Both the position numbers and the translations under genes were made by a program. From a virus (taxonomy: Duplodnaviria > Heunggongvirae > Uroviricota > Caudoviricetes), in the IMG/VR virus record IMGVR_UViG_2695420871_000010: DNA of 13,814 nt; one strand, 5' to 3'. Under the pieces are notes generated by a model. It was not told the DNA's origin, did not search any database, and worked only from the letters and a program-made list of their open reading frames with translations. Below, one piece after another: positions 13,599 to 13,746 of the stretch; position 1 is the stretch's first letter, and each line of letters opens with the position of its first letter.

Positions 13599-13746
13599 GT
13601 TCACTGCCGTACAGGCAGCTTAGAAATCGACGGGGTGCGGTAAAACCTTTGCGAACGCGTTCACTGCCGTACAGGCAGCTTAGAAATTCACAGGTAACAT
13701 ATTCCACCCGCCCACCATGTTCACTGCCGTACAGAAAGATAAAATG
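13599..13746 (+). CRISPR. Short type I-F CRISPR array (3 repeats, 2 spacers), no cas genes in window
   Basis: 28-bp repeat GTTCACTGCCGTACAGGCAGCTTAGAAA at 13599-13626 and 13659-13686; degenerate terminal repeat gttcactgccgtacagaaagataaaatg at 13719-13746; two 32-bp spacers (13627-13658 tcgacggggtgcggtaaaacctttgcgaacgc; 13687-13718 ttcacaggtaacatattccacccgcccaccat). AT-rich leader-like sequence upstream. Confidence 0.85.

Follow-up and report, generated by a model that had tools for sequence, protein, structure and literature searches.

The clpA-infA 'CRISPR-III' locus of Escherichia coli was described by Almendros et al. 2014 (PMC3903273). Touchon & Rocha 2010 (PMC2886076) named the locus CRISPR3 and termed it 'anti-CRISPR'; CRISPR3 spacers were found to match Cas1, Cas3 and Csy2 of the Ypest (I-F) subtype, with the spacers '1' and '2' matching the Ypest-subtype Cas1 and Cas3. 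Every genome without I-F cas genes carried at least one such spacer, and it was proposed that CRISPR3 stops the invasion by a functional cognate system (PMC2886076). In the account that a Mojica-lab review (PMC8616872) gives of Almendros et al. 2016 (Nat Microbiol 1:16081), native orphan arrays are constitutively expressed, cause interference against plasmids with a complete I-F cas set and also trigger the primed uptake of additional spacers. In the I-F-positive strains S88 and ETEC-2264 the order of the locus is clpA - leader - CRISPR4.1 - cas1f-cas3f-csy1-csy2-csy3-cas6f - tRNA-Ser - CRISPR4.2 - infA. The orphan array is reportedly called CRISPR4.1-2 by Diez-Villasenor and Mojica.

The window analyzed here, i.e., the whole stretch of 13,814 nucleotides, is E. 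coli DNA; over positions 10651-13808, which span clpS, clpA and the intergenic region, it shares 99% identity with strain 730V1. It harbors at 13599-13746 what is very likely an orphan type I-F CRISPR array of a cas-F-less E. coli, serving as a barrier against the (re)acquisition of a I-F system. Judged from the sequence, the array is composed of leader, repeat, anti-cas3f spacer, repeat, anti-cas1f spacer and degenerate repeat, in this order. The array is already known and has, as a type, been experimentally characterized; the copy in the window is an ordinary one. A short array of this kind, with no cas genes, is found in most E. coli between clpA and the serine tRNA gene. A summary of the features is shown in Table 1.

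Table 1. Features of the array, of its chromosomal surroundings and of the neighboring integrated element in the window
Feature	Position	Strand	Remarks
tyrosine integrase	746-1984		in the 568-10650 element
DUF4222	3972-4271		in the 568-10650 element
D5-type primase/helicase	4253-6058		in the 568-10650 element
SSB	6615-7037		in the 568-10650 element
ClpP-like prohead protease / major capsid fusion	7697-9577		in the 568-10650 element
clpA	11108-13384	+	upstream flanking core gene; 99% identical to the annotated clpA of 730V1 (L001 1724-4000)
clpA intrinsic terminator hairpin	13407-13440	+	inverted repeat; 15-bp stem, then T run
CRISPR leader	13441-13598	+	A/T-rich; homologous to the leader of cas-linked CRISPR4.1
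repeat 1	13599-13626	+	perfect I-F repeat; GTTCACTGCCGTACAGGCAGCTTAGAAA
spacer 1 (S1), anti-cas3f	13627-13658	+	32 nt; TCGACGGGGTGCGGTAAAACCTTTGCGAACGC
repeat 2	13659-13686	+	perfect I-F repeat; GTTCACTGCCGTACAGGCAGCTTAGAAA, same as repeat 1
spacer 2 (S2), anti-cas1f	13687-13718	+	32 nt; TTCACAGGTAACATATTCCACCCGCCCACCAT; private C16T
repeat 3, terminal, degenerate	13719-13746	+	GTTCACTGCCGTACAGAAAGATAAAATG; conserved over the first 16 nt only
serW terminator hairpin	13749-13784	-	abuts the array; first base 2 nt past repeat 3
tRNA-Ser (serW), 3' part	13790-13814	-	aligns with the annotated tRNA-Ser of 730V1 (L001 4580-4667, - strand)

Array structure

A search for repeats yielded three 28-bp type I-F repeats with an exact period of 60 bp. 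Repeats 1 and 2 were each matched on the + strand by the Rfam model CRISPR-DR4 (RF01317) with 50.1 bits (E = 1.8e-9), the gathering score of the model being 35. Both fold as .....(((((.....)))))........, i.e., with a 5-bp stem, a 5-nt loop and an 8-nt 3' tail, at -8.6 kcal/mol, whereas in repeat 3 the hairpin is gone (-0.7 kcal/mol); a stem-loop of the kind recognized by Cas6f is present in the first two repeats and absent in the third. A 28-nt repeat with a 5-bp stem and a 5-nt loop has the features of a Cas6f/Csy4 substrate. The array resembles the I-F systems of Pseudomonas aeruginosa and Pectobacterium in these three properties of the repeat, in the 32-nt spacers and in the CC PAM. It differs from them in that no cognate Cas is encoded nearby, so that processing is impossible unless Cas is supplied in trans.

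The two spacers are unrelated 32-nt sequences set in a regular repeat-spacer period. Copies of S1 or S2 elsewhere in the window, including the satellite-like island described below, were not found at up to three mismatches; each spacer occurs a single time at this threshold, and 200 shuffles gave no match. The first-pass annotation had called this stretch a two-spacer array of type I-F repeats whose spacers have no obvious match elsewhere in the window. All of this was borne out, the repeat type by the CRISPR-DR4 matches of repeats 1 and 2 above the gathering score and the array by three in-register repeats enclosing two 32-nt spacers.

Two open reading frames, 13393-13764 (-) and 13595-13786 (+), run over leader and array, and the homologous array in strain PK8261 bears the RefSeq 'hypothetical protein' WP_077698801.1. 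Gene calls over CRISPR DNA at this place are almost certainly spurious.

Chromosomal locus and leader

Upstream, the transcription unit of the array itself is bounded by the terminator of clpA. The interval 13385-13598 showed an identity of 85.2% to the S88 CRISPR4.1 leader and of 95.3% to strain 730V1; the last approximately 100 nt of the leader are nearly identical to those of S88, and the starts of the two arrays coincide to the base. Given the leader homology and the same position as in S88, the array is the positional and sequence homologue of CRISPR4.1. A strict sigma-70 consensus promoter was not found in the leader by scanning, and inspection by eye yielded weak candidates only. On the other side of the array, the tRNA-Ser was assigned by homology to annotated E. 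coli loci; ARAGORN reported no tRNA in the window because the end of the window cuts this gene.

The cas operon of approximately 8.5 kb is missing between the array and tRNA-Ser, and a I-F cas operon adjacent to the array is absent: repeat 3 ends at 13746, the serW terminator follows from 13749 and tRNA-Ser from 13790. Since the cas operon of I-F-positive strains sits between the array and tRNA-Ser, the window itself shows the canonical site to be empty, and the array is therefore an orphan, at least at the clpA/tRNA-Ser locus.

Regarding the locus, the first-pass annotation had placed the leader on the left, had named the clpA-infA interval as the known E. coli location of I-F arrays and had seen no space for a cas gene between clpA and the tRNA. 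The 85% identity to the S88 CRISPR4.1 leader and the distal position of the degenerate repeat agree with the first statement, and from these features the array is predicted to be transcribed from left to right. The location is that described in the literature (PMC3903273) and found in the S88 and ETEC-2264 loci, and the space is indeed taken up by the clpA terminator upstream and by the serW terminator 2 nt downstream of the array. Cas genes just beyond the window, which according to the same annotation would make the array a canonical one, are not applicable here, as it is serW and infA that lie beyond.

Comparison with known arrays

The array shares with the orphan CRISPR4 of E. coli (CRISPR4.1-2/CRISPR3) the clpA-tRNA-Ser locus, the repeat, the leader and the lack of cas-F genes, as well as the same two spacers, which are the '1' and '2' of Touchon & Rocha against Cas1 and Cas3. 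The orphan CRISPR4 of K-12 holds S2 alone, and those of 730V1 and Shigella flexneri hold S1 and S2, as in the window. From other orphan CRISPR4 copies the array in the window is set apart by two private changes only, C16T in S2 and C18A in the terminal repeat. Compared with the cas-linked CRISPR4.1 of S88, UTI89, LF82 and ETEC-2264, the repeat is identical, the leader 85% identical, the orientation the same and the position likewise directly 3' of clpA. Unlike the array in the window, the cas-linked arrays are followed by cas1f-cas3f-csy1-3-cas6f, hold 5-11 spacers, none of them against cas genes, and have another degenerate repeat at their end (…GGCAGTATTCACA).

Variants of the orphan array were also seen. 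In PK8261 (L004 5913-6120) S1 is tandemly doubled and is followed by another anti-cas1f spacer, and in the Shigella flexneri representative (L010 7124-7270) S1 has a 1-nt deletion (31 nt).

Spacer targets

A search of 5,426 complete E. coli genomes with both spacers was combined with local mapping onto the cas alleles. Besides the arrays, S1 matches cas3f and S2 matches cas1f of I-F-positive strains. Regarding S1, the sense strand of cas3f is matched at 32/32, with no mismatch, in ETEC-2264 (L005 9253-9284, +) and at 31/32, with a mismatch at position 12, in S88 (L002 9001-9032). Regarding S2, the antisense strand of cas1f is matched at 29/32 (mismatches at 4, 6 and 16) in S88 (L002 6877-6846) and at 28/32 (mismatches at 4, 6, 10 and 16) in ETEC-2264. 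All four protospacers have a 5' CC, the 5' flanks in both cas alleles being GGCC/TGCC at the S1 protospacer and TACC at the S2 protospacer. On the strand identical to the spacer, the type I-F PAM reads 5'-CC; both spacers thus target I-F cas genes with the I-F PAM on the protospacer strand.

The common S2 allele (K-12, 730V1 and Shigella flexneri; C at position 16), which is not that of the window, matches cas1f of Escherichia ruysiae at 31/32, with CC. Orphan arrays of K-12, PK8261 and 2017.17.03CC provided four more spacers; each of these has its match in cas1f or cas3f, at 0-4 mismatches. When all six spacers are considered, CC precedes the protospacer in 11 of the 12 spacer-by-allele comparisons. 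A mismatch at every sixth (unpaired) position was considered as a pattern; it fits S1 against S88 (position 12) and the common S2 allele against E. ruysiae (position 6) but not the other spacers, and is probably due to chance.

Protospacers in phages were not found at E <= 1. Seven matches were filed under plasmids, all of them copies of the array (S1 together with the beginning of the repeat that follows), and a genuine plasmid target was not found; five are located in chromosome-sized records of 0.7-4.9 Mb and the other two in single-cell assembly records of approximately 74 kb. The comparison of the spacers with phage and plasmid databases that had been suggested in the first pass thus yielded no phage or genuine plasmid target, and the best matches were I-F cas3f and cas1f.

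Distribution in E. coli and private changes

The cas1f-cas3f pair was found in 241 of the 5,426 complete E. coli genomes (244 matches in total, none on plasmids). S1 occurs at 32/32 in about 1,590 complete-genome records, approximately 40 of which may represent the ETEC-2264-type cas3f protospacer and not an array. Among the S1-positive records (1,802 in total) the median number of places is one, with 56 extra places in all; the extra place that was inspected, in PK8261, is a tandem duplication of S1 in a cas-less array with no coexisting target. S2 occurs, with any allele, in 2,562 genomes of this set, and the direct S1-repeat-S2 junction in 263.

The two private changes are located at 13702 (C16T in S2) and 13736 (C18A in the terminal repeat, the usual form of which in K-12, 730V1 and Shigella is GTTCACTGCCGTACAGACAGATAAAATG). 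The 5,426 complete E. coli genomes contain neither the exact S2 allele of the window nor the C18A variant. Both changes were also absent from a set of one genome per species (185,579 species), which was searched for S2 with a pattern accepting either allele. What this copy adds is only a marker for strain typing, i.e., the S1-S2 architecture of the 263 complete genomes plus two private single-nucleotide changes.

According to the predicted folds, the hairpin of the terminal repeat is abolished by the private C18A on top of the usual degenerate sequence. S1 is probably the only competent unit of this copy because it has two perfect flanking repeats, 0-1 mismatch and the correct PAM. S2 is probably crippled because it has 3-4 mismatches, including one at seed position 4 with the S88 as well as the ETEC-2264 allele of cas1f, because it carries the private C16T in addition, and because the hairpin of its 3' repeat is destroyed. 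The changes in S2 and in the terminal repeat have the look of drift, and not of a unit under strong purifying selection. There is a slim chance that the copy is decaying in such a way that selection still acts on the anti-cas3f unit but has ceased to act on the anti-cas1f unit; if so, lineages would differ in the cas gene on which their barrier relies. Still more speculatively, orphan I-F arrays might also be read by incoming I-F3 CRISPR-associated transposons or plasmid-borne I-F variants, which would alter their fate.

Proposed function and alternatives

By analogy with the orphan arrays studied in the literature, this array would be expressed, interfere and prime as follows. It would be transcribed from its leader and would be inert alone, with neither Cas6f nor Csy proteins at hand. 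Should a I-F cas operon arrive on a mobile element or by recombination, its Cas6f would process the array transcript. Loaded with the S1 crRNA, the Csy complex would then bind to cas3f on the incoming DNA, and the DNA encoding cas3f would be degraded by Cas2/3. Where the match is imperfect, as with S2, it would promote the primed acquisition of spacers against the carrier. All in all, a genomic barrier against the (re)acquisition of a I-F system would result. In this way a CRISPR array could persist after its cas genes are lost and work as a 'vaccine' against the very CRISPR-Cas system that it would otherwise serve, and a barrier of this kind would help to explain why I-F cas genes are present in only about 4% of the complete E. 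coli genomes.

Alternatively, an ancestral I-F system may have taken spacers from its own cas genes, with the self-targeting selecting for deletion of the cas genes and the array persisting as a functionless relic; that self-targeting drove the deletion of the cas operon is said to be the view of Diez-Villasenor 2010. The array is cas-less and very short, the private changes in S2 and in the terminal repeat suggest drift, and the leader has no consensus promoter, all of which would suit such a relic. Set against this are the occurrence of intact S1 in the large number of complete genomes given above (with the possible cas3f protospacers among them), the perfect match that S1 still has to one extant cas3f allele, and the experimental interference by native orphan arrays, as far as it is related in the review (PMC8616872). 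The account as a relic explains the origin of the array and is compatible with a present effect as a barrier; the conservation of S1 and the reported experiments favor the barrier over a relic and nothing else, which is regarded as unlikely. The reading as a remnant array in the first-pass annotation holds as regards the lack of cas genes at the locus. What the spacers target had gone unnoticed in it; with cas3f and cas1f as targets and with correct PAMs, this is the published 'anti-cas' orphan array and not a mere relic.

With only 13.8 kb of the genome in view, I-F cas genes elsewhere in the genome or on a plasmid might serve the array in trans. However, both I-F-positive loci that were inspected have the operon between the array and tRNA-Ser, where the site is empty here, and plasmids account for none of the cas1f-cas3f matches in complete genomes. 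Moreover, S1 would hit the cas3f of such a system with the correct PAM, which would be lethal or select for loss, and the S1 records mostly have a single place, the examined extra place (in PK8261) being in a cas-less array; service in trans is considered very improbable. A tandem repeat of chance or other origin, or a gene for a protein, might be suspected from the two reading frames (123 and 63 amino acids, respectively) that span the array and from the 'hypothetical protein' that PGAP/RefSeq sometimes puts over the homologous array. Such non-CRISPR explanations of 13599-13746 are excluded, given two Rfam matches over the gathering score, the exact 60-bp period, the homologous cas-linked arrays and the PAM-flanked protospacers of the spacers.

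Neighboring element and the serW site

An integrated element of approximately 10 kb, which 730V1, S88 and K-12-type genomes lack, is located at 568-10650 and separates yljB/cspD from clpS. An att-like imperfect direct repeat of 22 bp stands on its two sides, ATAGATGATAGTTATTTATCAT at 546-567 and ATAAATGATAGTTATCTATCAT at 10651-10672 (20/22 identical), and the element looks like an island of the phage-satellite type (PICI or P4-like). At least 80% of the window is covered by only 25 complete genomes.

At the serW end, strain 730V1 (L001 4357-4604, homologous to 13744-13814 of the window) has an insertion of approximately 114 bp that is absent from the window. The serW terminator and the 3' end of the tRNA are duplicated around the insertion, which resembles the scar, or the att duplication, of an element integrating at serW. 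In some RefSeq genomes an 'RtT sRNA' is annotated at the homologous place.
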